Virus record (IMG/VR): IMGVR_UViG_3300027787_000004
Location: 1 to 46,561 of that record
Strand: one strand, 5' to 3'
DNA: 46,561 nt
Source: a virus
Lineage: Duplodnaviria; Caudoviricetes
Shown here one piece after another: positions 1 to 40,793 of the stretch. A program made the position numbers and the translations under genes. How positions within the stretch are numbered: the first letter of the stretch is position 1; the number at the start of each line of letters is the position of its first letter. The notes under the pieces were generated by a model. The model was not told the DNA's origin. It was given only the letters and a program-made list of their open reading frames with translations, and searched no databases.

Positions 1-4
1 CCTG

Positions 5-4191: not shown

Positions 4192-4200
4192 GAGCCCCGC

Positions 4201-10466: not shown

Positions 10467-10467
10467 T

Positions 10468-12276: not shown

Positions 12277-12279
12277 TCC

Positions 12280-13095
12280 ATGGCAACGCTGGATGAGCTG
12301 ATTCAGCAGTCGCTCGCGCAGCTGGTGCAGCAAGGGGGCGGCCCGACCGAGCAGGCGCTGTTCAACCGATCCGCGGGCGACATCCAGACCGCGTACCAGA
12401 ACAACGCCCAGCAGATCGCGGAGAACACCTTTGCGCGCGGCTTGGGCATCAGCGACATCGCGGCGCATCTGCAGGCCGAGAACCTGAAGAACCAGGCGGC
12501 GGCGGTGGAGAAGGCGCGGCAGGATGCCTTCCTCGGGGGCCAGCAGGCGCAGCTCTCCGCGTTGGGGCAGGCGGCGGCGATCACGCAGGGCGAGGCCAAC
12601 CGGGCGCAGCAGGCGGCGCTGCAGAAGCGGGCGCTCTCGGCGCAGCGGGGCATGGCGAACACGCAGATGCTGGCGCAGGGCCTCGCGGGTGGCGTGGGCG
12701 CGCTCGGCAACGTGGCGGGCCTGGCCTACGGTCCCGAGATTCGCAGCGGGTTGCGCGGCCTCTTCGGGCTGCACACGCCGTCGCTGGGCAGCCCGACGCG
12801 ACCCGGCCCCGGCGAGGGCATGCCTGGCGCTGCCGCGCCCACCATTCCGGCGCTGCCCGACATGAGCGGGCCGAGCGGCGGCCTGGGCGCGTTGGCCGGC
12901 GGCGACATCCCCAACCTCACGCTGCCGGACTTCTCCTCGGCGTTCTCGACCAGCAGCGCGAGCACGCCGAGTTACAGCTTCGATTTCAACCCGTCCCTCG
13001 ACCTCTCCGGGCTCTACGACACGTCGATGCCGAGCCTCGACCTGTCGAGCTACTTCCAGCCGGGCTACGACTGGTCGAACATCGGGTGGGGCTAG
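12280..13095 (+). CDS. Putative DNA pilot/ejection protein
   Basis: 271 aa; Gln/Ala coiled coil, ARGLGIS motif, glycine zipper. Confidence 0.55.
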   Translation: MATLDELIQQSLAQLVQQGGGPTEQALFNRSAGDIQTAYQNNAQQIAENTFARGLGISDIAAHLQAENLKNQAAAVEKARQDAFLGGQQAQLSALGQAAAITQGEANRAQQAALQKRALSAQRGMANTQMLAQGLAGGVGALGNVAGLAYGPEIRSGLRGLFGLHTPSLGSPTRPGPGEGMPGAAAPTIPALPDMSGPSGGLGALAGGDIPNLTLPDFSSAFSTSSASTPSYSFDFNPSLDLSGLYDTSMPSLDLSSYFQPGYDWSNIGWG

Positions 13096-13098
13096 CCC

Positions 13099-16064: not shown

Positions 16065-16066
16065 CG

Positions 16067-17809
16067 ATGCCGGCACTGGGCATTCGGATCACGGCCCCGA
16101 GCACCGTGCCGTCCGTCGTGCTCGACGGTGGGGCGGGCGTCGTGGCGACGATCACGGAGGATGGGCTGACGGATCTGAGCCTCAACGCCACCACGGTCTT
16201 GTCGGGCACGCTGTCGGCTGAGTCGAGCGGCAGCCGCTTCGGGATCGACGATCCGTCGTTCGGCACCCGCCTCTCGGCCTCGGTGCGGCAGCTCTCGGCC
16301 ACCTCCGCGCTCGTGCGGCATTCGTATGCCAGCGCCTTTGCGACATTTACCTATGCGGTGGACGACGAAGACCTCACGATCACCGCGACGGTGACGAATC
16401 AAACGGGGGCGACCATCACCGTGCTCGGCTTCGAGGGGTTGGTGGGGCAGTGGATCACGGCCGAGGACGCCGACGTGATCATGGGCTACCGCACCACGTC
16501 GGGCACGGGACTGGATGCCTTTCATCCGGGCTACTTCACCCCCATCGGGGCCTGGTGCCAAACCGTCACCATCGATGCCACCGCGATTGGCTTCGCCCTG
16601 TACCCGATCAACGTCGGGCTGCATCGCACGCTCTGCTGGGATCGCGTCGGTCCCGCGTCGGTGCCCTGTCCGTCCTTCTATGTCAGCCCGTGCGTGGGGA
16701 GTCAGCCCCTCGGTGTCCCGAGCGGGCAGACCTACTCCGTGTCGTTTGGGCTCCGTCTGTCGTTGACGACGGACTGGCGCCATCTGCTCGCGCCCTATCG
16801 CACGCAATTCCGCGCCACGTTCGGGGCCGTGCAGTACACCGCCGATGACCGTCCCGTGGCCTCGCACAATTTCGACGGCACCGTGGACCCCGTGACGAAC
16901 CCCTACGGGCTGGCCGAGCGGATCGACACCGATGCGGGGGCCACCGCATGGATTGACACGTGGCTGCCGGTGATGACGGACTCGGGTTGCCTCGGCAACA
17001 TCTTCTGGAACCCGTATGGGACCGATCCGCGGTTTCTCGAGTTCAGCCCCGACGTGCATCTCGTTCCGCCCGAAGTCGCCACGCGGTTGCCGAGCATCGT
17101 CACGGCCTTGACGACGGCGGGTTTCCGGGTGGGGCGGCTCGGGCAACCGCACTGGATCGGCAGCCATTCCCAGTGGACGCCGACGGGCACCCCCGGCTAC
17201 CAGAACGGGATGAGGGCGTTCACCGACCAGTTCCTCACGCTCAACGCCGACTCGGCGGAACAAGTCCAACGGACACTTGACAACTTCGCCTCGGCGGCAC
17301 CCGGCAGCGGGTCCGACGACCCGGATCGTGGTTACGTGTCCGGCTTCGACGTGTTCTACCTCGACTCGTTCCCGAATACGCTCAACGACCTCCTGATCTT
17401 GAAGGCGCTACGCGCGCAATGGGGCTCCAGCGTCCTCGCCTATACAGAACAGTTCAGCGATGTCTCGATGGTCTATGCCGGCGTGTATACGGAACTGAAC
17501 GGCACTTCGGCGGACTCCGGCACATGGGCGATTCGCCCCACTCCCGGCGTCGGAGCGCCCAGCACGGCCCTCATGCTCCAAATATGTCGCTGGCTCACGG
17601 CTGCGACCTCGGTCATCTGCCACGATCGCACCGATCCCGGGGCGACCTACGATGATACGTATTTCGATTGGCTCTACAGCCGACAGTTGAGTGCCAAGCC
17701 GCTCACCTATCGCCTGGAGACCGACGTGAAAACGAAGATCCTCGCGCACAACGCGACGTATCTCGACGGCAGCAATCAGTGGATCTACGACTGGGAGGCC
17801 TCGCCCTAA
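16067..17809 (+). CDS. Putative virion-associated glycoside hydrolase (beta-sandwich plus barrel)
   Basis: 580 aa; GFDVFYLDSF and AYTEQFSD motifs resemble (beta/alpha)8 glycosidase strands; family not identified. Confidence 0.45.
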   Translation: MPALGIRITAPSTVPSVVLDGGAGVVATITEDGLTDLSLNATTVLSGTLSAESSGSRFGIDDPSFGTRLSASVRQLSATSALVRHSYASAFATFTYAVDDEDLTITATVTNQTGATITVLGFEGLVGQWITAEDADVIMGYRTTSGTGLDAFHPGYFTPIGAWCQTVTIDATAIGFALYPINVGLHRTLCWDRVGPASVPCPSFYVSPCVGSQPLGVPSGQTYSVSFGLRLSLTTDWRHLLAPYRTQFRATFGAVQYTADDRPVASHNFDGTVDPVTNPYGLAERIDTDAGATAWIDTWLPVMTDSGCLGNIFWNPYGTDPRFLEFSPDVHLVPPEVATRLPSIVTALTTAGFRVGRLGQPHWIGSHSQWTPTGTPGYQNGMRAFTDQFLTLNADSAEQVQRTLDNFASAAPGSGSDDPDRGYVSGFDVFYLDSFPNTLNDLLILKALRAQWGSSVLAYTEQFSDVSMVYAGVYTELNGTSADSGTWAIRPTPGVGAPSTALMLQICRWLTAATSVICHDRTDPGATYDDTYFDWLYSRQLSAKPLTYRLETDVKTKILAHNATYLDGSNQWIYDWEASP

Positions 17810-18513
17810 TGGCGATTGCTGAGGTTGCGAGCCAGCGGGTCCAAACGACCGGGGCCATGGGGGCCGCGTGCGATTTTGTCGATCTCGCATTTCCGAACAA
17901 TGTGACGGCTGGCAGCCTCCTCGTCGTCGCTGGAAATAACTATCACTCACCCCTGACCAGTGCCATCACCGTCACCGACACGGTGTTGACCAATTACACG
18001 GTGATCCTCGGCCCGACCCCGCTCAACAGTTACACGCTCTTTCTGGCCTATGGCTTCGCGCCGTCCTCTGGGGCAAACACCGTGCGTGTGGACCCCGACG
18101 GAACCGGCAATTACATCAACTTCGCCATGGACGAGTTCTCCGGCGTGGATAGTGGATCGCCCATCGACGTGGATGGTGGCGAGTCCACGGGCCACGACGA
18201 TGCTCCCGCCGACAGTCTCGTCACGACCACCGCGGGCGTCCTCATCGTGGCATCGGCGGGATCGCTCAACGACGCAGGCACCTGGACGGCGGGGACTGGC
18301 TGGACCCTATTCGGATCTCAAGGCTCCTCGAGCATCTCCTCGTTTGCCGCAGAGTTCCAGATTGTCGGGGGGGCTGGGACTTACACGGCGGACTTTGTGA
18401 CCACGAACACCCCGAATTGGGGCGTCTACACCGTCGGTTTTAAGGCCGCGGGAGGGGGGGGCGGCCTCCCCATCCCCGTCGCCATGGCCCACTACCGCCA
18501 GAGAGGGAACTAG
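17809..18513 (+). CDS. Virion adhesin-like beta protein with Gly linker and C-terminal IPVAMAHYRQRGN tag
   Basis: ATG at 17809 overlaps TAA; LAFPNNVTAGSLLVVA beta-sandwich; GGGGG linker. Confidence 0.6.
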   Translation: MAIAEVASQRVQTTGAMGAACDFVDLAFPNNVTAGSLLVVAGNNYHSPLTSAITVTDTVLTNYTVILGPTPLNSYTLFLAYGFAPSSGANTVRVDPDGTGNYINFAMDEFSGVDSGSPIDVDGGESTGHDDAPADSLVTTTAGVLIVASAGSLNDAGTWTAGTGWTLFGSQGSSSISSFAAEFQIVGGAGTYTADFVTTNTPNWGVYTVGFKAAGGGGGLPIPVAMAHYRQRGN

Positions 18514-18516
18514 CCC

Positions 18517-19401
18517 ATGCGCTTCCTGCGGACGAATACCGCGGTCATCATTACGGTGGGGCCATTTCTTGACAAGAGTGACGGCGTCACGCTGGAGACC
18601 GCGCTGACGATCACGAACGAGAAGATCACGCTGACCGCCGATACCGACGACGGCTCGGCGCCGACGAACATCCTCGACAACGTGACGGGCGCCACGTCGG
18701 GCACCTCCAACGACCTGAACTACATCACCGGCAACGACGCGGGGATGATGCAGCTCGAATTGTCGGCGGCGAACACGAACCGCCTCGGGCGCATGTTCCT
18801 CTCCATCACCGATGCGGCGAACCATCTGCCCGTGTTCCACGAGTTCATGGTGCTGCCCGCCATGATCTACGACGCCTTCATCCTCGGCACCGACGTGCTC
18901 CAGGCGGACATGACCCAGATCCTCGGCACCGCCGTGTCCACCCCGGCGACCGCAGGCATCCTCGACGTGAACCTGAAGAACATCGCGGACGCGGCGGTGA
19001 GCACCTCCACCGCCCAGCTCGGTGTCAACGTGGTGTCGGTCGCCAATGATGCGATCACGGCGGCGGCCATCGGCACCGGGGCCATCGACGCGGATGCGTT
19101 TGCGGCGGATGCGATCGGCGCCGCCGAGCTGGCGGCCGACGCCATCGCGGAGATCAAGGCCGCCGTGGTCGAGGCGCTCAATACCGACACCTATGCCGAG
19201 CCGGGGCAGGGGGCGCCGGCCGCGACCACGACCCTCGTGGCCAAGATCGGATACCTCTACAAGGCCTGGCGCAACAAGTCCACGCAGACCGCGAGCCAGT
19301 ACAGCCTCTTTGCCGACGATGCGACCACCGTCGATCAGAAGGCCACCTTTGCCGACGACGCCACCACGGCGACGCGCGGTGAAGTGGCGACCGGCCCGTA
19401 A
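18517..19401 (+). CDS. Fibre/adaptor protein (similar architecture to 5511-6974)
   Basis: 294 aa; N-terminal adaptor-like domain, AITAAAI/AIDADAF/AIGAAEL periodic repeats, C-terminal domain resembling that of the 487-aa protein. Confidence 0.6.
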   Translation: MRFLRTNTAVIITVGPFLDKSDGVTLETALTITNEKITLTADTDDGSAPTNILDNVTGATSGTSNDLNYITGNDAGMMQLELSAANTNRLGRMFLSITDAANHLPVFHEFMVLPAMIYDAFILGTDVLQADMTQILGTAVSTPATAGILDVNLKNIADAAVSTSTAQLGVNVVSVANDAITAAAIGTGAIDADAFAADAIGAAELAADAIAEIKAAVVEALNTDTYAEPGQGAPAATTTLVAKIGYLYKAWRNKSTQTASQYSLFADDATTVDQKATFADDATTATRGEVATGP

Positions 19402-19601
19402 TGGCCGCCGACAGCGCCGCCAAGCGGCTCGCGGCCATGAACTTCAGCGCCCCGTGGCGGGGCGTGGGTGTGGTGCCCTCGGGCACCGTGGACGCCAGTG
19501 AGCGCGCGGCGGCGCTCTACCTCTACAGCGGTATTGCAGGCGCCGAGCCGCCAGCGGGCACCGGCGACACCATCATCTTCTACCACCACCACGGAGCGTA
19601 A
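19401..19601 (+). CDS. Small virion linker protein
   Basis: 66 aa; TAATG coupling; DSAAKRLAAM..GTVDASERAAALYLYSGI; ends TIIFYHHHGA. Confidence 0.55.
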   Translation: MAADSAAKRLAAMNFSAPWRGVGVVPSGTVDASERAAALYLYSGIAGAEPPAGTGDTIIFYHHHGA

Positions 19602-19607
19602 AGGCCC

Positions 19608-19985
19608 ATGACGATCTACGGCTGGAACACCGTGCCGGTCAACGTGGCGATGCCCATCAGCGGGGGCACCGTCAACAGCGCGCCGTTCTCGGTGCCGCTG
19701 GACGCCTTCTCGCTGGCGATCCACACCCCGACGAGCCTCGGGGGAGCGACCGTGAAGCTGCAGTCGCTGGATCACGACACCGACCAGGCGACTGAGGTCT
19801 GGCGCGACGTGAGCTGCTTCAACCTCGCGGACGGCACCTTCACGGCGCTCGACGGCATCCCCGAGAACGCGGTGACCACGCTGCCGATCACCGCGACCGG
19901 GGGCGGGGTGCTGCGCTTCGTGGCCTCGGCCACGCAGGCCGCCTCGCCCTCGACCATCAAAGTGGACTTCCTCTGCGGACGCTAG
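19608..19985 (+). CDS. Small beta-sandwich virion protein
   Basis: 125 aa all-beta ORF in the structural operon. Confidence 0.5.
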   Translation: MTIYGWNTVPVNVAMPISGGTVNSAPFSVPLDAFSLAIHTPTSLGGATVKLQSLDHDTDQATEVWRDVSCFNLADGTFTALDGIPENAVTTLPITATGGGVLRFVASATQAASPSTIKVDFLCGR

Positions 19986-20002
19986 CCGCCGCGCTCACCC
20001 TC

Positions 20003-21605: not shown

Positions 21606-21787
21606 GGCTCCAGGTCATCCTCACCTGGGGCGAGCGGGACCGGAAGTGGGCGATGACGAGCGCCACCACCGGGCGCTTCCTCTACGACTTCTGGGACTGC
21701 GAGAACTTCAACAAGGTCTTCCGCCACATCGACAAGACCCAGCCCAACCGCTACACGCTCACCGTGGAGCGGAGTAAGGACCGCTGA
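21602..21787 (+). CDS. Hypothetical protein
   Basis: GTGA overlap start; 61 aa VRLQVILTWGERDRKW; TGATG coupling to protease. Confidence 0.45.
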   Translation: MRLQVILTWGERDRKWAMTSATTGRFLYDFWDCENFNKVFRHIDKTQPNRYTLTVERSKDR

Positions 21788-22533
21788 TGCCTCGCAAACT
21801 CGGCTGGACCCGAAGCCTCCCGGATCACCGCGACTTCCTGCGCGCGGAGCCCCCGCCGACGATGGAGCTGCCGGAGGCCGTGGACCTCTCGCCGCTGTTC
21901 CCCTCGCCGCCCTTCGACCAGGGCGACTTCGGCTCCTGCGTGTTCAACGCGGGGGCGGCGCTGATGCAGTACCAGCAACTGCGCCAAGGCTTCCCCGTGT
22001 GGATGCCGTCGCGCCTCTTCTGGTACAAGAACGTGCGCCGCATGGAGGGCACCGGCAACGAGGACGCCGGGGCGCAGATCCGCGACGCCATGAAGTCGCT
22101 GAACACCACGGGCGTCTGCTACGAGGCGTTGTGGCCCTACGATGACGCGCACTTCGCCGCCGATCCGCCCAAGGACTGCTACGACGTGGCGGAGAATCAC
22201 CAGTCGATCCGCTACGCCCGCGTGCGGCAGTACCCCACGCACATCAAGGCCGAGCTCGCGCTGGGCAACCCGATCATCTTCGGCGCGATGCTCTACCGCT
22301 CCTTCGAGTCGGACCTGGTGGCGGCCACCGGGGACGTGCCCTATCCGGGGCGGCTCGAGGAGCCCGTCGGCGGGCACTGCATGCTCCTCACTGGCTACGA
22401 GCGGGACCAGGTGATCGTGCGCAATAGCTGGGGGACCGGCTGGGGCGACAAGGGCCACTGCCGCATGCCCATGGACTACATCTGCTCCACAAATCTTTGT
22501 GATGATCTGTGGAGTTTATCGCTACTAGAGTAG
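21787..22533 (+). CDS. Papain-like cysteine peptidase (family C1A)
   Basis: LPEAVDL, DQGDFGSC (oxyanion Gln/catalytic Cys), GGHCMLLTGY (His), VRNSWGTGWGDKGH (Asn); no signal peptide. Confidence 0.92.
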   Translation: MPRKLGWTRSLPDHRDFLRAEPPPTMELPEAVDLSPLFPSPPFDQGDFGSCVFNAGAALMQYQQLRQGFPVWMPSRLFWYKNVRRMEGTGNEDAGAQIRDAMKSLNTTGVCYEALWPYDDAHFAADPPKDCYDVAENHQSIRYARVRQYPTHIKAELALGNPIIFGAMLYRSFESDLVAATGDVPYPGRLEEPVGGHCMLLTGYERDQVIVRNSWGTGWGDKGHCRMPMDYICSTNLCDDLWSLSLLE

Positions 22534-24069: not shown

Positions 24070-24224
24070 GGCGCCTCCATGGTGCCACACATCGGCCGCA
24101 CGCCGGAACTGCACACGCAGCCAGGCACGAACCCGCTGCACACGTACACGTCCGCGCAGCACGTGCCGCCGTTCCAGGTGGAGCAGCAGCAGAGCACGAG
24201 GAGCCAGAGGGCTAGCCGGCGCAT
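24066..24224 (-). CDS. Small Cys-rich, possibly exported peptide (52 aa, 9 Cys)
   Basis: MRRLALWLLVLCCCSTWNGGTCCADVYVCSGFVPGCVCSSGVRPMCGTMEAP; GGAG RBS; ATGA coupling to next gene; not listed in the ORF track. Confidence 0.55.
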   Translation of the reverse strand: MRRLALWLLVLCCCSTWNGGTCCADVYVCSGFVPGCVCSSGVRPMCGTMEAP

Positions 24225-24673
24225 CGGCGTCTCCATACCCCCCACGCCGCCAGCGTGAGGGCCGTCAGGGTGAGCGTCGCGGGCTCGGGGGTCTCCGTCG
24301 GCGCCGGATCATCTGCAGGCGGGTCGGGCACGAACAGCGCGATGCTGTCCACCGCCTTGCCGATCCCCAGCCCGAACGGCCCCCAGTAGAGCCAGTCGGT
24401 GGAGTACCACTCCTGGGTCAGCAGCCCGAAGTAGTCCATCGCCAGCCCCAGCGGCAGGCCGATGGCGGTGGCCTGCCACCGCTCGAGCAGGTGCACGGGC
24501 GCCGCCGTCAGGGCCACCTCCACCACCCCCGTCACGAGCGGCGCCCCGGCGGCGACGCACTCGGTGAGCGCCCCAAGGCTGCAATAGGCCATGACGAGTT
24601 GATCAGGCACGACCGGCACGGCCCCCGCCGGGGCGGGGAGTAAGAGCAGGAGCGCGAGCACGAGTTTCCACAT
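24212..24673 (-). CDS. Secreted PEP-CTERM sorting-domain protein
   Basis: Signal peptide MWKLVLALLLLLPAPAGA; C-terminus TPEPATLTLTALTLAAWGVWRRR = PEP + TM + Arg cluster; RBS AAGGAGG. Confidence 0.82.
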   Translation of the reverse strand: MWKLVLALLLLLPAPAGAVPVVPDQLVMAYCSLGALTECVAAGAPLVTGVVEVALTAAPVHLLERWQATAIGLPLGLAMDYFGLLTQEWYSTDWLYWGPFGLGIGKAVDSIALFVPDPPADDPAPTETPEPATLTLTALTLAAWGVWRRRCAG

Positions 24674-24689: not shown

Positions 24690-25244
24690 TTACAGGGACG
24701 TTTTTCGTCGCCGCCCCGCCCGTCCTTTGCGCGAGGCGCGGGCCGCCCGGCGCATCTCCTGAACCGGCGAGAGGGGAACCCCCACCGCTCGTAGGGGAAT
24801 GGCCAGTGGAGCGGACGGACGGGGCAGCCGGGGCGCCGCCTGGATCTGGATGACGGCCGCCGTGAGCCCCGCGTGTGACAAGTAGTGCGCGATCATGTTC
24901 TCCACCACGGGCACCGGCAGCTCGGCCAGTAATTGCATGGTGCCTCGATGCCAGACGCGAATCGTCCAGCCCGGTTGCAGGTGCTCCTGCCAGCGGTCTT
25001 TGCATAGTTGGAGTTCAATCTGCGGCGGCACCGCCAGCCCCATCATGAGCGGCCGAGCGGGACGGAGATGGGCGTGGATACGAGCGCTCAGCGCGCGCGG
25101 CGGGGTCTTGCGCTCGCCGAACTTGAGCGCGCCGAGAAAGTAGCGACACGTGTGCCCGTGGACGCGCGGCGGGCACGGGTCGGGCGTCAACACATCGAGC
25201 AGGACCACGAGCGCGAAGAGGAGCACAGCGAGCGGACGGGGCAT
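24690..25244 (-). CDS. Hypothetical protein, N-terminal hydrophobic segment
   Basis: 184 aa; RBS AAGGAGAGG; co-oriented with repressor. Confidence 0.5.
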   Translation of the reverse strand: MPRPLAVLLFALVVLLDVLTPDPCPPRVHGHTCRYFLGALKFGERKTPPRALSARIHAHLRPARPLMMGLAVPPQIELQLCKDRWQEHLQPGWTIRVWHRGTMQLLAELPVPVVENMIAHYLSHAGLTAAVIQIQAAPRLPRPSAPLAIPLRAVGVPLSPVQEMRRAARASRKGRAGRRRKTSL

Positions 25245-25289: not shown

Positions 25290-25685
25290 TCATGCGGGGC
25301 ACCACGTAGGCAGCAAAGGGCGTGCCCAGGACGTGAGCGCACGTCCCATAAGAGACACAAATTCAACGACTTGCACGACACCTGGGGGCAGAATTTCACC
25401 TGAGCCCCCACGGATCGCGCGAGCCATCCGGCGGCCTTTCCCCTTGGGTTCAGGCGGGGCAGCCAGGTTGATCAGGTCGCCGAAGTCGAGCCCGTAGACC
25501 TCAGCCAGCCGGCGCAGCGTGCGGGGCTGGGGATCGCGGATCATCCCGTTGTCCCACTGCTGGACGGTGCCGAGCGCCACCCCCAGGTGCTTCGCCATGG
25601 GGTAGACCTTGCCGTCGTGGTAGGTATCCTTGAGGGCGCGGATCAGGGCGCGGAAGTCGGCGCATTTCTTCGGGTCAACAGCCAT
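25290..25685 (-). CDS. cI: XRE-family HTH repressor (CI-like)
   Basis: VYPMAKHLGVALGTVQQWDNGMIRDPQPRTLRRLAEVYGL; divergent from cro-like gene; RBS GGAGGAGG. Confidence 0.8.
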   Translation of the reverse strand: MAVDPKKCADFRALIRALKDTYHDGKVYPMAKHLGVALGTVQQWDNGMIRDPQPRTLRRLAEVYGLDFGDLINLAAPPEPKGKGRRMARAIRGGSGEILPPGVVQVVEFVSLMGRALTSWARPLLPTWCPA

Positions 25686-25745: not shown

Positions 25746-25778
25746 TTGACAGACTCCGCCTACCTGTGGCCTAGTAGT
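25746..25778 (+). promoter_or_regulatory. Rightward early promoter with overlapping operator-like palindrome
   Basis: TTGACA at 25746; CCTAC-N7-CTAGT at 25759-25775; -10 element not canonical. Confidence 0.5.
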
Positions 25779-25781
25779 CGC

Positions 25782-25991
25782 ATGAAAAAGCGACCGCCCG
25801 TCAATCGCATCAAGTTGAAGGCGCTGCGGGAGGCGCGCGGCTGGGAAATTCCAGATGCCGCCTACCACATCGGCGTCTCGCGCCAGACCCTGATGTATCT
25901 GGAACGCGGTCTCGTGCGTCGGCCCAACCCGCTGACGCTGGAGGCCATCGCCAAGACCTACGACGTGCCCGTCGAAGCGCTCGTGTCCTGA
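25782..25991 (+). CDS. cro: Cro-like HTH protein
   Basis: LKALREARGWEIPDAAYHIGVSRQTLMYLERG..PNPLTLEAIAKTYDV. Confidence 0.8.
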   Translation: MKKRPPVNRIKLKALREARGWEIPDAAYHIGVSRQTLMYLERGLVRRPNPLTLEAIAKTYDVPVEALVS

Positions 25992-26689: not shown

Positions 26690-27142
26690 ATGCCCTTTGC
26701 GATCGGCGTCGAGCACGTGAAGAGCGGCGTGAATGTGGGCACGTTGCTACGGAGCGCCTGGAATTTCGGAGCCGCATTCGTGTTCACGGTGGGGCAGCGG
26801 TACTACCGGCAAAACGCCGATACGGTGAAGGCGTACCGACAGATCCCGCTCTTCCATTTCGCCGATTGGGACGACTATCGGGCGCACGCCCCGTTTGCCT
26901 GGACGCCCGTGGCGGTCGAGATCATGCCGACGGCGGAGCCGCTGGAGACGTACCAGCACCCGAAGTGCGCCAGCTATCTGCTCGGCCCGGAGGATGGGCG
27001 GATCAGTCAGACGGCCCTCGCTCACGCGCGCGATGTCATCAAGATCCCATCGCGGCTTTGTCTGAACGTGTCCACTGCTGGCGCAGTAGTCATGTACGAC
27101 CGGCTAGCGAAGCAATTGCGCGAGAAAGAACCCCATCCATGA
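26690..27142 (+). CDS. SPOUT (SpoU/TrmH/TrmL-like) RNA methyltransferase
   Basis: Motif 1 NVGTLLRSAWNFG, motif 2 YLLGPEDG, motif 3 IKIPSRLCLNVSTAGAVVMYDR. Confidence 0.85.
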   Translation: MPFAIGVEHVKSGVNVGTLLRSAWNFGAAFVFTVGQRYYRQNADTVKAYRQIPLFHFADWDDYRAHAPFAWTPVAVEIMPTAEPLETYQHPKCASYLLGPEDGRISQTALAHARDVIKIPSRLCLNVSTAGAVVMYDRLAKQLREKEPHP

Positions 27143-29450: not shown

Positions 29451-30200
29451 ATGCCGCGTATCCGGACGCTCAAACCGGACCATCGCCAGCACCGCAAAGT
29501 TGGCCCGCTCGATCACGTTACCTACCGGCTCTGGGTGGGCATGATCCTCGAGGCCGACGACGAAGGCCGGCTGGTCTGCGACACCGAGCAGCTCCGCGTC
29601 ACCATCTTCGGCTACCACCCGCGGGTCACGGGAGCACTCATTGAGTCCTCACTGAGCCGTCTGGACAAGGCGGGGCTGGTGCAGCTCTACGCGATGGGGG
29701 GCCTGCGCTATGCCTGGTTCCCGTCCTGGCGCGATCACCAGGTGATCAACCGCCCAACGCCTTCCAGATTGCCACCTTACGAGGACTCACTGAGTGATCC
29801 GGGAGGACTCATTGAGGACTCACTCCTGAAAGGAAGGGAAGGGAATGAAGGGAATGGAGGGGAACGGAATGGAACCGCGCCTGCGGCGCTCGTCGTGAGC
29901 GAGGGCTTCGACACGTTCTGGGCGGCATACCCCAAAAAGCGGTCGAAGGATGAAGCCAAAGCGGCGTGGAAGAAACTGAACCCGGATGCCGCCCTCCAGC
30001 GCGTCATGCTCGCGGCCATCGACCAGCAGCGCCGCAGCGTCGATTGGTCGCGCGACAACGGCCAGTACATTCCCCATCCGGCCACGTGGATCAATAAAAA
30101 GCGCTGGACCGATGAAATCACGGCGGTCGCGCCGCCACTCATGAACCCGCGCAATGAGGCGGTGCTGCGGGATTTTGTCGCCCGGAGAGGCCAAGCATGA
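29451..30200 (+). CDS. Phage replication initiator (O-like/replisome organiser)
   Basis: MPRIRTLKPD..ADDEGR N-terminal domain; FDTFWAAYPKKRSKDEAKAAWKKL..YIPHPATWIN C-terminal domain; internal iterons. Confidence 0.82.
   Translation: MPRIRTLKPDHRQHRKVGPLDHVTYRLWVGMILEADDEGRLVCDTEQLRVTIFGYHPRVTGALIESSLSRLDKAGLVQLYAMGGLRYAWFPSWRDHQVINRPTPSRLPPYEDSLSDPGGLIEDSLLKGREGNEGNGGERNGTAPAALVVSEGFDTFWAAYPKKRSKDEAKAAWKKLNPDAALQRVMLAAIDQQRRSVDWSRDNGQYIPHPATWINKKRWTDEITAVAPPLMNPRNEAVLRDFVARRGQA
29632..29874 (+). repeat. Putative replication origin: 11-bp iterons plus purine tract
   Basis: GAGGACTCAYT at 29781, 29803, 29814; variants at 29632, 29643; GGAAG/GGAAT repeats 29832-29874. Confidence 0.65.
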
Positions 30201-33047: not shown

Positions 33048-33385
33048 CCCCGCCCGCCCCGACGCCGGACCCGAGAGTATGCAGGGCGTCTCCTACGAGC
33101 GATCCGCCTGTCGATTGTGACGCTCCGTTCTGCGGATGTGTACCCGCGTGGCAGGACGCGATTGCCATGCTTCAAGAGTGCGGATGGGGTGACATCGCCA
33201 CCGCCCACGCCCGAGGGCGGGAGGAAGAACGCAAGAGCTGGCGCGCGGTGACGGTCCCGATGCTGGAGAGCTTGGAAGCGTGGGACGACAGGGGGCCACA
33301 CGGGGAAGGCTGGCAATCGGCCGAGCTCATGGCGCTGATCAATGCCATCCGCGCCCTCGGCGGGGGCGGGGAGGGGAGGGCATGA
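33044..33385 (+). CDS. Hypothetical protein
   Basis: ATGA overlap; CDAPFCGC; GEGWQSAEL. Confidence 0.5.
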   Translation: MTPPAPTPDPRVCRASPTSDPPVDCDAPFCGCVPAWQDAIAMLQECGWGDIATAHARGREEERKSWRAVTVPMLESLEAWDDRGPHGEGWQSAELMALINAIRALGGGGEGRA

Positions 33386-33600
33386 GTGAGCCCAGAGAGA
33401 ACTTTCTCGGCTGCGTCCACGCGCCGGAGAGCGCGCCGCACACGTGGTGCTGGCCGTGCTTGACGGCCTGCGTCCAGCAGGCCATACGCCCGCTCCAGGA
33501 GCTCGTGGCCGGGGCCCATGCGCTCCGGTGCGCCTGCGCCGGCCCCGGTCCGCTGCGCGATCCGCGCTGCGCGGAGCTCCAGGGTATGGCGGGCGACTAG
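33382..33600 (+). CDS. Small Cys/His-rich protein
   Basis: CVH..HTWCWPCLTAC; last gene of rightward operon, stop overlaps convergent stop (CTAG). Confidence 0.45.
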   Translation: MSEPRENFLGCVHAPESAPHTWCWPCLTACVQQAIRPLQELVAGAHALRCACAGPGPLRDPRCAELQGMAGD

Positions 33601-33776
33601 GGCGGTCTCGGCTTCGCCTGCCGCGCCTTCTCGAGATTCGCCACCGCGGCCGCGCGCTTCTTCGCGGTGCTGACCGCGCCGCCCTTCGCCCCCACGCAGC
33701 ACGGGTAGATCATCACGCCGGGCTTGCCGTGAACGGGGCACCGGGCGGTGGGGAGTGTCTCGCTCTCGTAGCTCAC
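33597..33776 (-). CDS. Small basic protein
   Basis: CPVH..CC..GGAVSTAKKRAAAVANLEKARQAK; GTGA overlap. Confidence 0.5.
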   Translation of the reverse strand: MSYESETLPTARCPVHGKPGVMIYPCCVGAKGGAVSTAKKRAAAVANLEKARQAKPRPP

Positions 33777-34096
33777 AGCTCGCTCTCCTCCGTCTCGGTC
33801 TGCGTGAAGTTGGTGTGGTGGACGTGCTTGAGCTTGTCCTCGGCGAGGATCCAGTTGAAATCCCCGGACCCACCGTCGTCGATCTCGTTGTGGGGATGGG
33901 GATACCGATCTCCGGGGAACCTCGTTGTGGGCATCCCACCCTCGGTGTCGCAGTGCCGACATATCACCCGGTTGCAGCCCTCGCAGTAGTCGTGGATGGC
34001 GCAGGCCAGCCCGGAGCAAATCGAGCAGCGGTCGTGGTAGAGCGCCGTCTGGGCCTTCTCCTCGATGCAGAGCTCGCAGAGGTCAGTGGTCAGCAT
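33773..34096 (-). CDS. Multi-Zn-finger protein
   Basis: CELC, CSIC, CAIH, CEGC, CRHC. Confidence 0.55.
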   Translation of the reverse strand: MLTTDLCELCIEEKAQTALYHDRCSICSGLACAIHDYCEGCNRVICRHCDTEGGMPTTRFPGDRYPHPHNEIDDGGSGDFNWILAEDKLKHVHHTNFTQTETEESEL

Positions 34097-34232
34097 GGGG
34101 TTCCTTCTCCGGGGGGCGACAGACCGGACACAGGCAGGGCGTGTTGAGGCTGGACGGGTAGCCCGAGATCGGAAGGTGCATCGTCCGGATCTCCTCGTCC
34201 GTGAGTCGGAGGCCGATGATCTTGTCGGCCAT
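34083..34232 (-). CDS. Small hypothetical protein
   Basis: MADKIIGLRLTDEEIRTM..CLCPVC; 49 aa. Confidence 0.4.
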   Translation of the reverse strand: MADKIIGLRLTDEEIRTMHLPISGYPSSLNTPCLCPVCRPPEKEPHADH

Positions 34233-34235
34233 GGG

Positions 34236-34634
34236 TTAGTGCCATCCCAGGATGATCAGGCCGTCCGGTGGCATCGCGTTGACGTAGGCGGTGGTGGGGT
34301 GATCGGGGAAGTGCTTGCGTAACACAGGGCCCAAATTTCCGGCCGTGACCATCTTGTAGATGGCACCGTATGGGTCCGTGGTGTACTTGCCGTAGTACAT
34401 TTCGCCCTCGGCCTTGCCGTCGGGAATGATCTGACCGAGGAAGCCGGTGATGTCGTAGCCGGCGAGCGACGTCGCTGGGAGCTTCTGCACCGCTGGCCAG
34501 ACACTCTGCTGGCGGGGCACATCCAGGATCGTGTGGCTATAGCCCCACTTTTTGTCGATGGCGGGACCCGATGACATGCGCACGTTCTCGGTGCTCAGGA
34601 AATCGACCGGGAAGAGTCGAAGATCGACGCCCAT
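34236..34634 (-). CDS. Hypothetical protein
   Basis: MGVDLRLFP..TTDPYG..IILGWH; TGATG coupling. Confidence 0.6.
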   Translation of the reverse strand: MGVDLRLFPVDFLSTENVRMSSGPAIDKKWGYSHTILDVPRQQSVWPAVQKLPATSLAGYDITGFLGQIIPDGKAEGEMYYGKYTTDPYGAIYKMVTAGNLGPVLRKHFPDHPTTAYVNAMPPDGLIILGWH

Positions 34635-34978
34635 CACTCGCCCTCCGGGATGGTGTAGCCGCGGCTCATCCACACTTCCCGCTTGATGTGTCTGAACCAG
34701 TCAGACACGGTCGGAATGAACCCGCCGCAGTCCTCCTTGACGTGCTGCTCACCGATGTACCGGACGGGGACCACGCGACCGTCCGAATTGGTGATGGTGT
34801 GGCCGAACACGCGCTCGGCCTCGAAGATGCCCTGGCTGTGGTGGCGCAGGGCCCGATGGCGGAAGTCCGCGAACGTCTCCTTCGTGGCGTCGAACCAGTC
34901 GTGGATGGCCTGGTAGTCCTCCGGCTTGCCACCGTACCGCCGGGCCGAGCTCTCCGCGTGGATGTAGGGGTGGGTCAT
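34634..34978 (-). CDS. DUF6915-like protein
   Basis: MTHPYIHAESSARRYGGKPEDYQAIHDWFD..HRALRHHSQGIFEAERVFG..EQHVKEDCG. Confidence 0.75.
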   Translation of the reverse strand: MTHPYIHAESSARRYGGKPEDYQAIHDWFDATKETFADFRHRALRHHSQGIFEAERVFGHTITNSDGRVVPVRYIGEQHVKEDCGGFIPTVSDWFRHIKREVWMSRGYTIPEGE

Positions 34979-35184
34979 CCCTTGATCGCCTCCCATTCTT
35001 GAATGGCGCGGTCGAACAGCTCGTCGATCTCCTCAGTGGTCAAGTCCATGGACTCACTGAGGTCTCGGTACTGCTTGGGGGTCAGCCCTACCGAGTTGAT
35101 CTCGGCCAGGAGCCGGGGGAACTGGATCCGGTTGTCGGCCCACAGGCCGTTCGCGGCCAGGGCTTGCCGTCGTGCCCGCCTCAT
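34975..35184 (-). CDS. Hypothetical protein
   Basis: LWADNRIQFPRLLAEI..LSESMDL..LFDRA; ATGA overlaps. Confidence 0.55.
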   Translation of the reverse strand: MRRARRQALAANGLWADNRIQFPRLLAEINSVGLTPKQYRDLSESMDLTTEEIDELFDRAIQEWEAIKG

Positions 35185-35414
35185 GCCACGTCCGGGTCCG
35201 GCGCCGGGCCGGGGCCGAGGATGCGGGAATCGTCCTCGTATGCCTCCACCACCCAGCCGTGGTGCAGGAAGATGAGGTCGCGGGTGACGTCCCACTTGAT
35301 CGTGCCCGACGAGCCTTCGTTGTCGAAGCCGTCGAGTCCGTACTCCTCTAGCAGGGAGTAGAAGAAGTTGTCGAGGTCGTAGTCCGCGTTCTGGCCGTTC
35401 ACCGTGTTCATCAT
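35181..35414 (-). CDS. DUF6878-like protein (short, C-terminal part only)
   Basis: FFYSLLEEYGLDGFDNEGSSGTIKWDV; RBS AGGAGG. Confidence 0.5.
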   Translation of the reverse strand: MMNTVNGQNADYDLDNFFYSLLEEYGLDGFDNEGSSGTIKWDVTRDLIFLHHGWVVEAYEDDSRILGPGPAPDPDVA

Positions 35415-35561
35415 TGGGCCTCCTGGGTTCTGTGTCTCGGTCCTTCTACCCTATGCGTGCTTGGTGAAGAAATCTCGGGTGTGGTACAAGCGGCGGTCGA
35501 TGGCGCCTATACTTACACGGCATGACGCGGTGTCCTTGTGAATCCAAGTATTAGCGCACTC

Positions 35562-35578
35562 ACTACCTGACTAGTAGT
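35562..35578. promoter_or_regulatory. Operator-like palindrome
   Basis: ACTAC-CTGACTA-GTAGT. Confidence 0.6.
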
Positions 35579-35609
35579 AAGCGGGCTTGGGGAGAGATCG
35601 GGCGGGGGA

Positions 35610-35786
35610 CTACTTCACTTCGCGCCGGCTCGCCTGGTGCTGCCGCCACGACCACTCGGCGTAGACCGCGCGCCGCAACGCCTCCGAGCGCAGCTTGTTG
35701 CCCTCGAGCAGCCAGCGCAAGTAGTCGGTGGGCACGTCCACGAGCAGCCAGTCCCGGTACTTCCCGAACGGCAGGATGACGGCCAA
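35610..35786 (-). CDS. DUF3820/QSregVF-like small protein
   Basis: TTG start; ILPFGKYRDWLLVDVPTDYLRWLL motif; 58 aa, not in ORF track. Confidence 0.65.
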   Translation of the reverse strand: MAVILPFGKYRDWLLVDVPTDYLRWLLEGNKLRSEALRRAVYAEWSWRQHQASRREVK

Positions 35787-36062: not shown

Positions 36063-36548
36063 ATGAGCCGCCAGGCGAGCGCGGTCGCCACTGTCCAGTA
36101 CGCAGCCGTCGAGGCCACCCCGCATCGCGATTACTTCCGCGGCCATGGCCCCCAGCTCGAGCCCAACTGGCCCGAGCGCTACCTGGTCGCCCTCGCCCAG
36201 ACCGGCAAGGGCTGGCTCTCGGCCAAACACGCCGGCGTCGCCTACAAGACCGTGCAACGCCTCCGCAGCGTCGATCCCCGCTTCGTGGAGGACGAACACG
36301 ACGCCCTCCGCGAGTTCACCGAGTCGCTGGAAGGCAACCTCGACCGCATCGCCGCCGGTGGCGACATGCCCGCCGTCACCGCCAATATCGTGCGGTTGAA
36401 GAAACTCGACCCCGTCGGCTACGTCGAACGCAATCTCACCGTCACCGCCAGCTTCTCCGCCGAGCTCGATCCCGCCGAGGGCAAGCAACTGCTCGCCGCC
36501 ATCCTCAGCCAGGCGCCAGCGCCGAGCGCGCTGCCGGAGACCACGTGA
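36063..36548 (+). CDS. terS: Terminase small subunit
   Basis: WPERYLVALAQTG..SAKHAGVAYKTVQRLRSVDPRF HTH-type TerS pattern; first gene of the operon leading to terL. Confidence 0.65.
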   Translation: MSRQASAVATVQYAAVEATPHRDYFRGHGPQLEPNWPERYLVALAQTGKGWLSAKHAGVAYKTVQRLRSVDPRFVEDEHDALREFTESLEGNLDRIAAGGDMPAVTANIVRLKKLDPVGYVERNLTVTASFSAELDPAEGKQLLAAILSQAPAPSALPETT

Positions 36549-36754
36549 AAGCGATGCGCCCGGAAGCCGCCCCCTGCCCGACCTGCGGCGAGTACCCCGT
36601 GTGGTGGATGGCCTGGGACGGCGACTCACGGCTCACCTGCCGCTGCACGTACCGTGACACCCTCGCCTGGCTGAACCGGATAGCCGGCAACACTGTGCTT
36701 TCGCCCTCGCCCGAGGCGCAGGAAACGCGCGCGGCTGGCGAGGAGCGGGCATGA
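36545..36754 (+). CDS. Small Zn-ribbon protein
   Basis: CPTC..CRC; GTGA overlap. Confidence 0.45.
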   Translation: MKAMRPEAAPCPTCGEYPVWWMAWDGDSRLTCRCTYRDTLAWLNRIAGNTVLSPSPEAQETRAAGEERA

Positions 36755-36813
36755 CGCGGTGTGGTCAGGCCGGCGGCTCTGGCGGTGGCTATGGTGCCGT
36801 CACGCTATACCGG

Positions 36814-36826
36814 CAAGTGCTTGATA
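36814..36826 (-). promoter_or_regulatory. IHF consensus site
   Basis: Minus strand TATCAAGCACTTG matches WATCAANNNNTTR. Confidence 0.5.
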
Positions 36827-36834
36827 ACGTGTGT

Positions 36835-36862
36835 ATGTCCGTTAAGGGCCTTTATGTCAACT
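36835..36862 (+). other. dif-like XerC/XerD recombination site
   Basis: ATGTCCGTTAA-GGGCCT-TTATGTCAACT: 11-6-11 layout, inner TAA/TTA, XerD-type arm TTATGTCAACT. Confidence 0.72.
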
Positions 36863-37069
36863 TCGCCGCGGTGAGCCAGTCAATGCTGCCGCGTACTTAC
36901 GAGCGCGCCGACGATACCCCCGAGGGGTACGCGAGCGTTATCGGACGCCAGGTGAGGGCCGGCCATGACGCGGCGTAGCCAGGCCGGGGTGGCGGACCGA
37001 TCGAGGCCGCCGGGAGTCCCGTCTCCTCGGAGTGCCCGAGCACGGGCCACCCTCCGATCTTCCCGTCCC

Positions 37070-37309
37070 ATGGAGTCGGTAGCGGATCGACGGGCGGAAT
37101 TGCGGCGGGCGGCGAAAAAGGGCGCTGGGTTCTGGTGCTGGCTCTGCGGGGGGCGACATCGGGCGGACGCGCTGTGGGAGATGCCGGACGGAGTGTGGCA
37201 GGTGGAGTGCGCGGGGGTGGCGTCGTTCGTGGAATATCAGGGGAGCGTGGGGCCGCTGGGGGTGCGATGGAGTGGGGCGCCGATTTCGCAGAATGAGCGG
37301 ATTGCGTGA
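37070..37309 (+). CDS. Hypothetical protein (CxxC)
   Basis: FWCWLCGGRH..VEC. Confidence 0.4.
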   Translation: MESVADRRAELRRAAKKGAGFWCWLCGGRHRADALWEMPDGVWQVECAGVASFVEYQGSVGPLGVRWSGAPISQNERIA

Positions 37310-37343
37310 GCCCGGAAAATCGCGGGGCGGGGGGAAAAGGGCG

Positions 37344-37538
37344 GTGAGGCCACTGACGCGGGAAATGGAGGCGCTAGAGGAGCGGATTTCGGAGATGCGG
37401 CACGCCCTGGACTTTGAGCGCGCGTATCTGCGAGACCGGGTGGAATCGATCGCCGACACGCTGGACGCGCTGCGGACGAAGATCCTGGGTGATCTGTCCA
37501 ATCTGCGGGCGGACCTGGTGAAGCGGGGGAGCTTGTGA
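37344..37538 (+). CDS. Coiled-coil protein
   Basis: MEALEERISEMRHALDFERAYLRDRVESIADTLDAL; start uncertain. Confidence 0.45.
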   Translation: MRPLTREMEALEERISEMRHALDFERAYLRDRVESIADTLDALRTKILGDLSNLRADLVKRGSL

Positions 37539-37726: not shown

Positions 37727-37917
37727 GCGACCCGCGCGACTGGCCGGGGGCGGCGCGAGAGCGGGCGACGGTGGTGGCGGAGCTCGCCGAGCTCGAGCAG
37801 ATCCTGCGGGAGTACGCGCCGCCGTCGGCGTGGTGTCGGGCAGGGGCGGATGAGGGGGCGCCGTGTCCGTGTTATCGGTGCCGGGCGCTGCGGATCTGCC
37901 GGTACGGGGTGCGATGA
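37723..37917 (+). CDS. Small Cys-rich protein
   Basis: GTGA overlap; CPCYRC. Confidence 0.4.
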   Translation: MSDPRDWPGAARERATVVAELAELEQILREYAPPSAWCRAGADEGAPCPCYRCRALRICRYGVR

Positions 37918-38465
37918 AGTACCGCACGATCGTGGCCGATCCGCCGTGGCCCTATCCCGAGGGATTCGCCACGCAATCGCGGACGGCGGGCGTGTGGGCC
38001 GGTCCGATCCGCACCAAGGCGTTGCCATATGGGGCCTTGCCGCTCACGCAAATCAGAGCCTTGCCGGTGCATACCGTGGCCGCATCCGACGCGCGCTTGT
38101 TTCTGTGGGCGACTAATCGCTACGTGCCGGTCGCATTGGCGATTATGAAGGCGTGGCGATTCCGCTATCGGCAATGCTTGGTCTGGGAGAAGCCGGACGC
38201 GCTGAACGGCTCGATGGCCCCGAATGCCGAATTTCTGCTCGTGGGACAACGGGGGGCGCCGGGACGCCTCGGGCGCTGGCCGAGCGCCGTGATCCGGCAC
38301 GCGCAGCCGAAAACGCATAGCCAGAAACCCGAAGTGTTCACGGATCTGATCGAGACGGCCTCACCCGGCCCGTACTTGGAACTCTTCGCCCGGCGCAACC
38401 GCCTCGGCTGGGACACCTGGGGTAACGAGGCGCTGTGCCATGTGGATTTGGCGACCGGCACATGA
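37914..38465 (+). CDS. MT-A70 family N6-adenine methyltransferase
   Basis: YRTIVADPPW, LFLWAT, HSQKPE, YLELFARR..GWDTWGNE. Confidence 0.92.
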   Translation: MKYRTIVADPPWPYPEGFATQSRTAGVWAGPIRTKALPYGALPLTQIRALPVHTVAASDARLFLWATNRYVPVALAIMKAWRFRYRQCLVWEKPDALNGSMAPNAEFLLVGQRGAPGRLGRWPSAVIRHAQPKTHSQKPEVFTDLIETASPGPYLELFARRNRLGWDTWGNEALCHVDLATGT

Positions 38466-39047: not shown

Positions 39048-40793
39048 GTGCCCCGCCCGACGCGCGAGGGCAAGGAAGCCGCGGCCGTCGGCGCCGCGCT
39101 CCGCCAGGCGCTGCTGAGCGACGACCCAGCGGTCCACCAGCACGGCTACGGCCCACTCTACACGCTGCTCCAGCTCCTGCACGCCAATCGCGGGGCGGGC
39201 AACGCCATCGACCCGGCCTTCCACGGCCCGCTCTGCTGGTACGCGCACACGACGCCCTACCGGGAGAATCTCTACCTGATCGCGCGCGGGCATCTGAAGA
39301 CGACGATCCTCACGGTGGCGGGCATCATCCTGCGGATTCTGCGCAACCCGCAGATCCGCATCCTGATCGTGTCGAACAAGGCGGAGAACGCCAATGCGAT
39401 GCTGGCCGACGTGAAGGTCGGGCTCACGCACAAGTGGCTCGTGGCCGCGTTCCCGGACGTGCTCTATGTGGACCCGGAGCGCGAGGCGCGGAAGTGGACG
39501 GAGTCGGTGATCATGGTCAAGCGCCCGCGCCACACGCGCGAGGGCACGGTGGAGTCGATCGGGGCGACGGGCGAGCTCACCTCGCGCCACTACGAGCACA
39601 TCGTGTACGACGACCTGGTGGGGAGTGAGAACAGCCAGACGCGCGAGGAATTGCTGAAGAGCATCGAGTTCATCAAGAAGGTGCAGCCGCTGCTTGATCC
39701 GGGCGGCACGCAGGATTTCGTCGGCACCACGTGGCACTATGCCGACGCGTACGCCTGGCTGCTCGAGCAGAAGACGCACCACGGCCGGGAGATCGGCGTG
39801 TACCGCGAGGAATGCTGGGAGGACGCCCCCGAGGGCGCCCCCGGCGCCGAGTTCGCGCCCGGCTTCGGCTGGAAGCGGGCGAAGTTCGCCACGCGCTTCA
39901 CGGTGTCCGCCGCGGTGCCCGGCAAGGAATCGCTGCTCGGCATCCGGGCCAAGATGGGCTCGGCCTGGTTCGCGGGCCAGTACCTGCTCAATCCCTCCTC
40001 GCCCGACACGGCCTACTTCGACCCGGACAAGCTGGTGCGCGAGCGCCGGGCGGACATGCCGCCGCTCGACACCATGTGGGTCTGCATCACGGTCGATCCG
40101 GCGATCAGCACGAAGGCGTGGGCGGATTACTCCGCGCTGGCCGGCGTCGCCTTCGGCCCCGACGGGCAGCCGCACATCTGGGATCTGCGCCGCGGCAAGT
40201 GGAAGGAGGACGAGCTGATCGCGCGCGTCTACGACTGCTACGACGCGCTGACGGCGAAAGGGGCGCAGGTGGTCGCGGTCGGCTTCGAGGCCATCGCGTT
40301 CGCCAAGATTTTCCGGCGCCTGTTCGAGATCGAGGGCGAAAAGCGCGGCTACTACCTTCCGATCGTGCAGCTGGAGCGCGACACGAAGATCACGAAGAAC
40401 GTGCGCATCCGGGCGCTCCAGCCGGTGTGGGAGGCGGGGGAGCTGCACATCGCCACGGAGTGCGAGGCGCTGGAGGATTTTCAGGAGGAGGCGCGGCACT
40501 TCCGCACCGACCGCGAGAACACGCACGACGACATGCTGGACGCGGTGGTGGATGCGCTCCAGCTGCGCGCGCGCCCGCTCGCGGCGGGGCCGCTGCCGTC
40601 GCTCTACGACGATCCCGAGGTGACGGAGCGCGTGGCCTTCGAGCGCGCGCTGATCGCCTCGCGCAGCGCGGCCGGTCGCCGCGCGCTCGATCAGACGGAG
40701 TTGCGCGTGGCGTGGTCCCATCGCCAGCGCGTGGCGCAGATCGAGGCCGAGGCCGAGCGCGGCGGCGCGACGGCGCTCGCCGAATGGGTTTAA
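39048..40793 (+). CDS. terL: Terminase large subunit
   Basis: Walker A variant ARGHLKTT, Walker B HIVYDDL, VGTTWH, nuclease ITVDPA/DYSA/HDDMLDA. Confidence 0.9.
   Translation: MPRPTREGKEAAAVGAALRQALLSDDPAVHQHGYGPLYTLLQLLHANRGAGNAIDPAFHGPLCWYAHTTPYRENLYLIARGHLKTTILTVAGIILRILRNPQIRILIVSNKAENANAMLADVKVGLTHKWLVAAFPDVLYVDPEREARKWTESVIMVKRPRHTREGTVESIGATGELTSRHYEHIVYDDLVGSENSQTREELLKSIEFIKKVQPLLDPGGTQDFVGTTWHYADAYAWLLEQKTHHGREIGVYREECWEDAPEGAPGAEFAPGFGWKRAKFATRFTVSAAVPGKESLLGIRAKMGSAWFAGQYLLNPSSPDTAYFDPDKLVRERRADMPPLDTMWVCITVDPAISTKAWADYSALAGVAFGPDGQPHIWDLRRGKWKEDELIARVYDCYDALTAKGAQVVAVGFEAIAFAKIFRRLFEIEGEKRGYYLPIVQLERDTKITKNVRIRALQPVWEAGELHIATECEALEDFQEEARHFRTDRENTHDDMLDAVVDALQLRARPLAAGPLPSLYDDPEVTERVAFERALIASRSAAGRRALDQTELRVAWSHRQRVAQIEAEAERGGATALAEWV

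Follow-up and report, generated by a model that had tools for sequence, protein, structure and literature searches.

Gene content of the phage and search for a recombinase

The window, by which we mean the whole stretch of 46,561 nucleotides that was analysed, belongs to a podovirus-like, temperate soil phage (Table 1). Besides the terminase, replication initiation and capsid genes, it encodes a P22-like portal, an SU10 adaptor and an Arc-like protein. The large terminase subunit matches NF033889 with E 5.7e-23 and 81.5 bits, under the cut-off of 150. A cI/cro switch is present as a divergent pair of HTH genes, as the first-pass annotation of this DNA had recognised. Accessory genes code for a papain-like peptidase (21787-22533, +), a PEP-CTERM-tailed protein that suggests a Gram-negative host (24212-24673, -), a SpoU rRNA methylase (26690-27142, +) and an MT-A70 DNA methyltransferase (37863-38465, +). 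Thirty cluster look-ups named no host.

Table 1. Positions of the genes and sites discussed, numbered along the window.
Feature	Position	Strand	Remarks
Conserved orphan gene adjoining site B	24690-25244	-	Homologues P0083, P0084, L321
cI-like XRE repressor	25290-25685	-	Ends ...SLMGR-ALTSWARPLLPTWCPA
Site B, candidate attP	25341-25368	+	ACGTCCCATAA GAGACA CAAATTCAACG; in last codons of cI-like gene
cro-like HTH gene	25746-25991	+	Pfam HTH_31, E 2.6e-11; divergent from repressor
Replication initiation protein	29451-30200	+	phrog_270, E 2e-27
Terminase small subunit (terS)	36063-36548	+	phrog_4044, E 4.5e-10
Direct repeat, left copy flanking site A	36748-36773	+	Spacing 214 bp
IHF consensus, exact WATCAANNNNTTR	36814-36826	-	Candidate IHF box, 8 bp upstream of site A
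Site A, dif-like 11-6-11 core	36835-36862	+	Two near-canonical arms; predicted self-by-self XerCD site
Lone XerC-arm-like half site	36938-36948	-	Between site A and conserved motif
Direct repeat, right copy flanking site A	36962-36987	+	
Clade-wide motif, about 60 bp, close to terminase genes	36993-37054	+	nhmmer
Terminase large subunit (terL), nearest T7 type	39048-40793	+	phrog_38, E 4.5e-68
Major capsid gene, cut by contig end	45640-46561	+	

A six-frame search of the 46,561 bases found no tyrosine recombinase (PF00589), serine resolvase (PF00239) or ParA (PF13614); the controls of this search were positive in 14, 13 and 14 of 14 genomes. The earlier claim that integrase and parA are missing holds for these bases; about 3,421 nt more of the genome lie outside the window. 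By CheckV the linear record is 97% complete. A contig of 5,977 nt from run X1 is found at both ends of the window, at the same depth and on the same strand. From length, depth and strand we infer that its two occurrences are one record. The genome would therefore close, with the unread nucleotides falling between the cut capsid gene and position 1. Scanning for exact copies of the right end of the window gave no match.

A dif-like site between the terminase genes

Site A is what the first-pass annotation described: an XerC arm, ATGTCCGTTAA (36835-36845), a GC-rich spacer, GGGCCT (36846-36851), and a canonical XerD arm, TTATGTCAACT (36852-36862). The word TTATGT[TCA]AA has a single occurrence on both strands of the window, in this site. 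A matrix scan like the one that had been proposed singled it out as well, at 21.1 bits against 10.1 bits for the runner-up place in the window, using a matrix built from the sites of six relatives with the window's own site left out. The XerC arm has a T at a position where dif has a conserved A. The reported IHF consensus was also confirmed; positions 36814-36826 read CAAGTGCTTGATA, the sole exact copy of WATCAANNNNTTR on both strands. The description of the locus as an AT-rich island needs tempering: the DNA is AT-rich, but the AT count of the 28 bases is equalled by 37 islands and that of the 49-base stretch by 5. Site A and the IHF box are genuine sequence features.

For comparison with dif we used the supplement of PMC3025954, whose rows, in the part accessible, are predicted dif sites. 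By eye, both arms of site A agree at 10 of 11 positions with the Acidobacteria Ellin345 row, i.e. at 20 of 22, and the XerD arm agrees at 11 of 11 with the Solibacter row. Neither TAAGGG nor CCTTTATG occurs in any row of the dif table as accessible, and hence GGGCCT is no dif spacer listed there.

The pair of direct repeats around site A recurs around the sites of two relatives (L004 and L007). The repeat's 15-bp core has a third copy at 35519-35533, upstream of terS. Joints seen in run X4 at 36769-36961 are probably due to the direct repeat and were set aside. A near-identical strain (L002:1-1183) differs upstream of terS, where about 33.4-35.6 kb seem replaced or missing (run X4 joint 33373-35613). 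The lone XerC-arm-like word that separates site A from the motif has the sequence of the left dif arm listed for Geobacter FRC-32 in the accessible PMC3025954 table; another dif-like half arm lies on the other side of site A (36817-36827, +), and arm-like words occur close to the sites of L004 and L007 as well.

Site A and its flanking motif among relatives

With an nhmmer profile, the motif of about 60 bp was found above 20 bits at 19 distinct loci, duplicates dropped and the window included; the others are L003, L004, L007, L010, L011, L015, L016, L018, L023, L025, L026, L028, L030, L031, L089, L097, L107 and L120. These span phages with terL identities of 41-65%. The profile had no match in the long fragments L005, L006 and L024, which also have no strong site, and weak ones only in L029 and L094. 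A search of the window against Rfam matched no family at the motif. It is likely to be a packaging or genome-end signal, and it could also be a small RNA. GC skew is negative in terS and strongly positive past the motif (positions 37001-37400), and L004 and L007 are alike in this. In L089, at about 6810-6855, the dif-like site is missing and the palindrome GACTACA-T-TGTAGTC stands twice just upstream of the motif.

Within a search span of 300 bp, a dif-like core lies 96-189 bp upstream of the motif at 12 of the 18 loci that have a full 300-bp flank (the window included), compared with 30 of 1443 background windows, by a pattern that was widened after the data had been inspected. The strict pattern TAA-N6-TTA occurs at 7/18 motif loci and in 5/1443 background windows. 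Wrong-spacer controls of 4, 5, 9 and 10 gave 1, 0, 0 and 0 of 18 loci, and no core lies downstream of the motif (0/19). By a quick tree the 18 loci are akin, hence not independent, and at six of them site A is wanting within 300 bp of the motif. L010 has motif and site both upstream of terS, and the site is therefore tied to the motif and not to the terS gene. As to conservation of the 28-mer in relatives, a check that the first-pass annotation had proposed, the core recurs with the motif, but its spacers vary, with orientation either way; each of the three closest phages has a GC-rich spacer of its own. The IHF box is conserved only in part. WATCARNNNNTTR is exact at 4/19 loci against 8/1443 background windows, but its place is not kept: the three relatives have it on the opposite side and strand of the site.

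Counterparts of site A are also found in phages that carry an integrase (L011, with a 7-bp spacer, L025, L026 and L030). We had first favoured the idea that at site A dif replaces an integrase, and dropped it once looser scans showed sites in these integrase carriers. Xer-like recombinases of 328-356 residues, below the XerC/XerD cut-offs, are encoded at L174:1426-2496 (-), L175:1081-2100 (+) and L176:1117-2103 (+), and the near-symmetric sites of L025, L026 and L030 could be loxP-like targets of those phages' own recombinases. In the relative L182 (G003, 1-20000) the capsid operon seems to be inverted, as it runs in the direction opposite to terL and portal; neither the motif nor a dif-like site was matched there.

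A link between dif-like sites and terminase genes may be wider. Out of 121 loci retrieved, eleven GC-rich viral ones, chosen by a dif pattern alone, were annotated, a twelfth being too short. In four of the eleven a terminase gene follows the site within about 2 kb, a proportion that has no background count beside it. Unrelated GC-rich viral contigs gave a full dif-like site followed by an IHF-like word (L221, about 5242-5269) and another near a replication initiator, 240 bp from the contig end (L229, about 5998-6025).

A second dif-like site within the 3' end of the repressor gene

Listing half sites across the window revealed site B, 16 codons ahead of the repressor stop. Its XerC arm is intact and equals the arm of four Geobacter dif rows in the accessible part of PMC3025954, and its spacer GAGACA is that of the Acidothermus and Propionibacterium rows of the same table, which are actinobacterial. 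The right (XerD) arm is degenerate. An intact XerC arm with a degenerate XerD arm is the arrangement of TLC-type attachment sites; site A has instead two 11-bp arms around a centre within the 6-8 bp of cer and psi. Such an arm next to a host-like spacer was seen once, against 0.007 expected per resampled genome (300 resamples, with the pattern chosen post hoc). Read in reverse, the spacer end and XerC arm of site B encode SLMGR of the repressor, and the 16 residues that follow, ALTSWARPLLPTWCPA, are predicted from their sequence to be a degradation tag.

At the DNA level site B is represented in two phages, the window and L007. The repressor of L007 is 40% identical, and its gene carries at the equivalent position a half site that shares the 6-mer. 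This half site retains an XerD-like arm, the window an XerC arm, and for that reason the L007 half site is not of TLC type. The repressor ends in CPA in the window and in LAA in L007, where the last residues are MELAA.

Sites A and B are 11.5 kb apart in direct orientation, with the immunity, replication and terS genes between them, and their spacers differ at four of six bases. For the product of the orphan gene adjoining site B we obtained no Atlas match, and a structural model of low confidence (pLDDT 60.9) matched no fold; the gene is possibly an Xer helper, a role for which we found no support. PF12375 (XafT/DUF3653) is absent from the genome at E values up to 10. Site B is a better attP candidate than site A, and it is likely the real integration site of the phage.

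Dif arms in the tails of the repressor family

Of the repressor homologues, 221 passed an E value of 0.001; the best 150 were taken, and 104 of these are of single-domain size. A translation of a dif arm occurs in the last 45 residues of 67 of the 104, at the protein level and with peptide classes defined after the tails had been read; shuffles averaged 9.8 and reached 18 at most. By frame, the reversed XerC arm accounts for 28, 8 and 8 homologues and the XerD arm for 12, 12 and 0, one XerC-arm class (8) just equalling its shuffle maximum. Because five of the six frame and strand classes are found among the tails, what is conserved would be a DNA motif and not a protein motif. The dif-arm peptide lies a median of 20 residues from the C-terminus.

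The tails also share their last residue. Alanine stands at the C-terminus of 52 of the 67 homologues with a dif-arm peptide, 12 of the 37 without one and 6 of 81 terminase controls, and Ala-ending tails of this kind look like a degradation tag. One homologue of 119 aa, P0160, stops exactly at YYVN, a reading of the XerD arm, without an Ala tail, and may be the integrated form. A profile of the repressor family hit the window and the L007 contig only and nothing in the long, integrase-carrying records G008, G016 and G019; no integrase was seen in either record with the family. The repressor-based scan returned the L007 contig alone.

Search for integration junctions

Neither at A nor at B did a prophage junction appear in the genome_contigs scan (2 loci, both lacking host flanks), in the contigs over site A, or in a scan of viral sequences for the dif predicted for the host (8 loci, all unrelated to the phage). 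The phage split at site A beside a host dif, which the first-pass annotation had suggested looking for, was not found: contigs from runs X1, X2 and X3 span site A without a break, and X1 and X2 are possibly the source samples.

Several leads were set aside. A loose viral scan for an IHF box plus dif returned 30 loci, mostly AT-rich and apparently unrelated, of which L002 alone was informative. The Hyphomicrobiaceae bin with L168 may hold a misbinned phage contig; a dif pattern occurs in 2 of 41 genomes of its order, and matches of the bin to ATAA-N6-TTATG named no host dif. The KOPS polarity (10 plus, 1 minus) was rejected as a signal, many G-rich octamers being equally skewed.

A two-site model for host XerCD

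Lysogeny through host XerCD is likely. This agrees with the first-pass annotation as regards the use of host Xer; the site that it flagged is not the one through which integration probably runs, which is site B. We favour a model, at a probability of roughly 0.55, in which host XerCD is used twice, at site B as the attP for recombination with dif and at site A for recombination of the site with itself. Upon injection of terminally repeated DNA, recombination between two copies of site A would make the genome circular or break down multimers, a part played by loxP in P1. The terminal repeats are weakly suggested by the T7-type terminase match below cut-off and by analogy with phage Jasmine, for which a 1,330-bp repeat is described in the accessible text of PMC5513430 and whose capsid protein is only 25% identical to that of this phage.

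Recombination of site B with dif would then place the phage in the chromosome. One junction would regain a working dif, its XerC arm coming from the phage and its XerD arm from the host. Across the other, the reading frame of the repressor would run on into host DNA and its 16-residue Ala-ending tail would be replaced, so that the protein would likely be stabilised. If the tail is a degradation tag, lysogeny would be locked only upon integration, an integration-dependent immunity with no phage recombinase. Since the spacers of A and B share only two of six bases, deletion by A x B and recombination of A with the host dif would be blocked. Xer requires FtsK or accessory factors according to the accessible passages of PMC6744903. 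It is tempting to go further and picture a widespread family of tailed soil phages that rest the entire lysogeny decision on the host chromosome-dimer machinery, with two Xer sites of incompatible spacers, a tag removed upon integration and possibly an undescribed Xer activator beside site B; we offer this tentatively, at somewhat less than an even chance.

Several alternatives were weighed. Site A could have some other role while site B is the Xer attP, docking XerCD or IHF at packaging or injection, capturing cassettes, or serving in relatives as the target of a tyrosine recombinase. One third of the motif loci do without site A, the sites of L025, L026 and L030 are near-symmetric in phages that encode Xer-like recombinases of 330-360 residues, additional half sites surround site A and the terS-terL interval differs between strains. 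Yet arms and 6-bp spacing are kept while the letters of the spacer vary, which is the pattern of recombining sites, and no recombinase was seen in this phage; we regard such a role as unlikely. To a plasmid prophage, in which site A would resolve dimers like cer and psi and site B would be a relic or a mere XerC-binding site, we give nearly the same low chance. With its two intact arms, its conserved flanks and the IHF box, site A looks like a core with accessory sequence, and the genome has a replication initiator and an Arc-like gene. The plasmid-like option, which the first-pass annotation had allowed, has however lost ground, for no ParA was found and a candidate attP of chromosomal type exists; it also leaves unexplained the dif arms about 20 codons from the end in 67 of 104 repressors, in several frames and with Ala tails, and the presence of site A in integrase carriers.

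That site A itself is the attP, with integration at dif between terS and terL, is improbable. Its arms come near to Acidobacteria and Deltaproteobacteria dif predictions, no integrase was seen, and the record behind L003 stops inside the XerD arm of its site, which might mark the edge of a prophage or a break in the assembly. We judge it probably not the attP because integrase-carrying relatives have it too, because it is linked to a non-coding motif and not to the immunity region, because its spacer is unlike the published dif spacers, differs even among the three closest phages and stands in both orientations, and because the contigs of three runs cross it unbroken; site B fits better. An ordinary integrase in the unread gap, using site B or another attP, is less probable again. 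The gap is big enough, and 6 of 22 related virus records have tyrosine recombinases, but it comes after the cut capsid gene, within the structural operon, whereas in G008, G016 and G019 a distance of 17-22 kb separates recombinase and capsid genes, and no integrase adjoins the repressor in the window or in the L007 record. We give hardly any credence to the sites being chance matches or protein-coding artefacts. The loose IHF-plus-dif scan did yield mainly unrelated AT-rich records, and some patterns were broadened post hoc; against this stand the strict patterns, the wrong-spacer controls, the leave-one-out scoring and the multi-frame result for the repressors.

Comparison with known systems

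The accessible literature reports integration by way of Xer in filamentous, tailless and satellite phages as well as in islands. Among the publications searched, which include the accessible parts of PMC12715192 and 10.1101/633727 and lie mostly outside subscription journals, we found no tailed phage or phage-plasmid that uses dif. If the two-site model is true of a tailed phage, "no integrase" cannot be equated with "not integrating", and dif becomes a place to seek missed prophages of soil bacteria. The repressor tail is a protein-level marker for such phages, with 67 candidates from one search, and two Xer sites with different spacers offer a direct test of short-repeat phage circularisation and of Xer activation away from the septum.

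The closest parallels to site B are integrative elements that exploit XerCD. The attachment sites of the TLC phage of Vibrio cholerae and of the gonococcal genetic island (GGI) have a layout with a degenerate XerD arm (PMC5357621, accessible passages), and TLC combines a degenerate-arm attP with XafT (PMC6744903 and PMC9226527, likewise). This phage resembles these IMEX elements in site B, where an intact XerC arm and a degenerate XerD arm enclose a centre of host type as judged by two published dif spacers, and no integrase was seen in the 46,561 bases; it differs in being a tailed phage of about 50 kb with no DUF3653/XafT, a candidate attP in the repressor and a second full Xer site. XacF1/Cf1c and phiRSS0 are 7-kb filamentous ssDNA phages (inoviruses) with a dif-like attP in the 3' end of a repressor-like gene, as described in the accessible passages of PMC4076744 and PMC3816273, which name no degradation tag. 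XerCD integration would alter the C-terminus of the repressor-like protein there, as it would for site B; the present case differs in the tailed phage, the large repressor family and the Ala-ending tails.

Mycobacteriophage BPs integrates by its own integrase. Tag removal and integration-dependent immunity are described for it in the accessible text of PMC4557955. The likeness lies in a candidate attP in the repressor 3' end, here site B, 16 codons before the stop; the difference is that here no phage integrase was seen and the site mimics dif.

Site A has other counterparts. The layout of loxP is 13-8-13. P1 circularises its terminally redundant DNA by Cre-lox or by RecA, according to the accessible part of PMC3973344, and for site A too we propose a site-specific site that circularises terminally redundant injected DNA. 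In our case, however, the recombinase would be host XerCD acting on an 11-6-11 site, no phage recombinase was seen and we infer the terminal redundancy. The plasmid resolution sites cer and psi have a two-arm core that recombines with itself (PMC5357621, accessible passages). Such cores go with accessory DNA of some 180 bp to which PepA binds together with ArgR or ArcA. Site A shares with them a two-arm core with conserved flanking DNA, and differs in its IHF box, the lack of a partition gene and the tie to a motif in the terminase region.

By these analogies, the phage would combine the workings of a TLC-type IMEX with a switch of the BPs type. We class it under neither type, since it has neither XafT nor an integrase of its own that we could see. 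Each part taken singly has a precedent.
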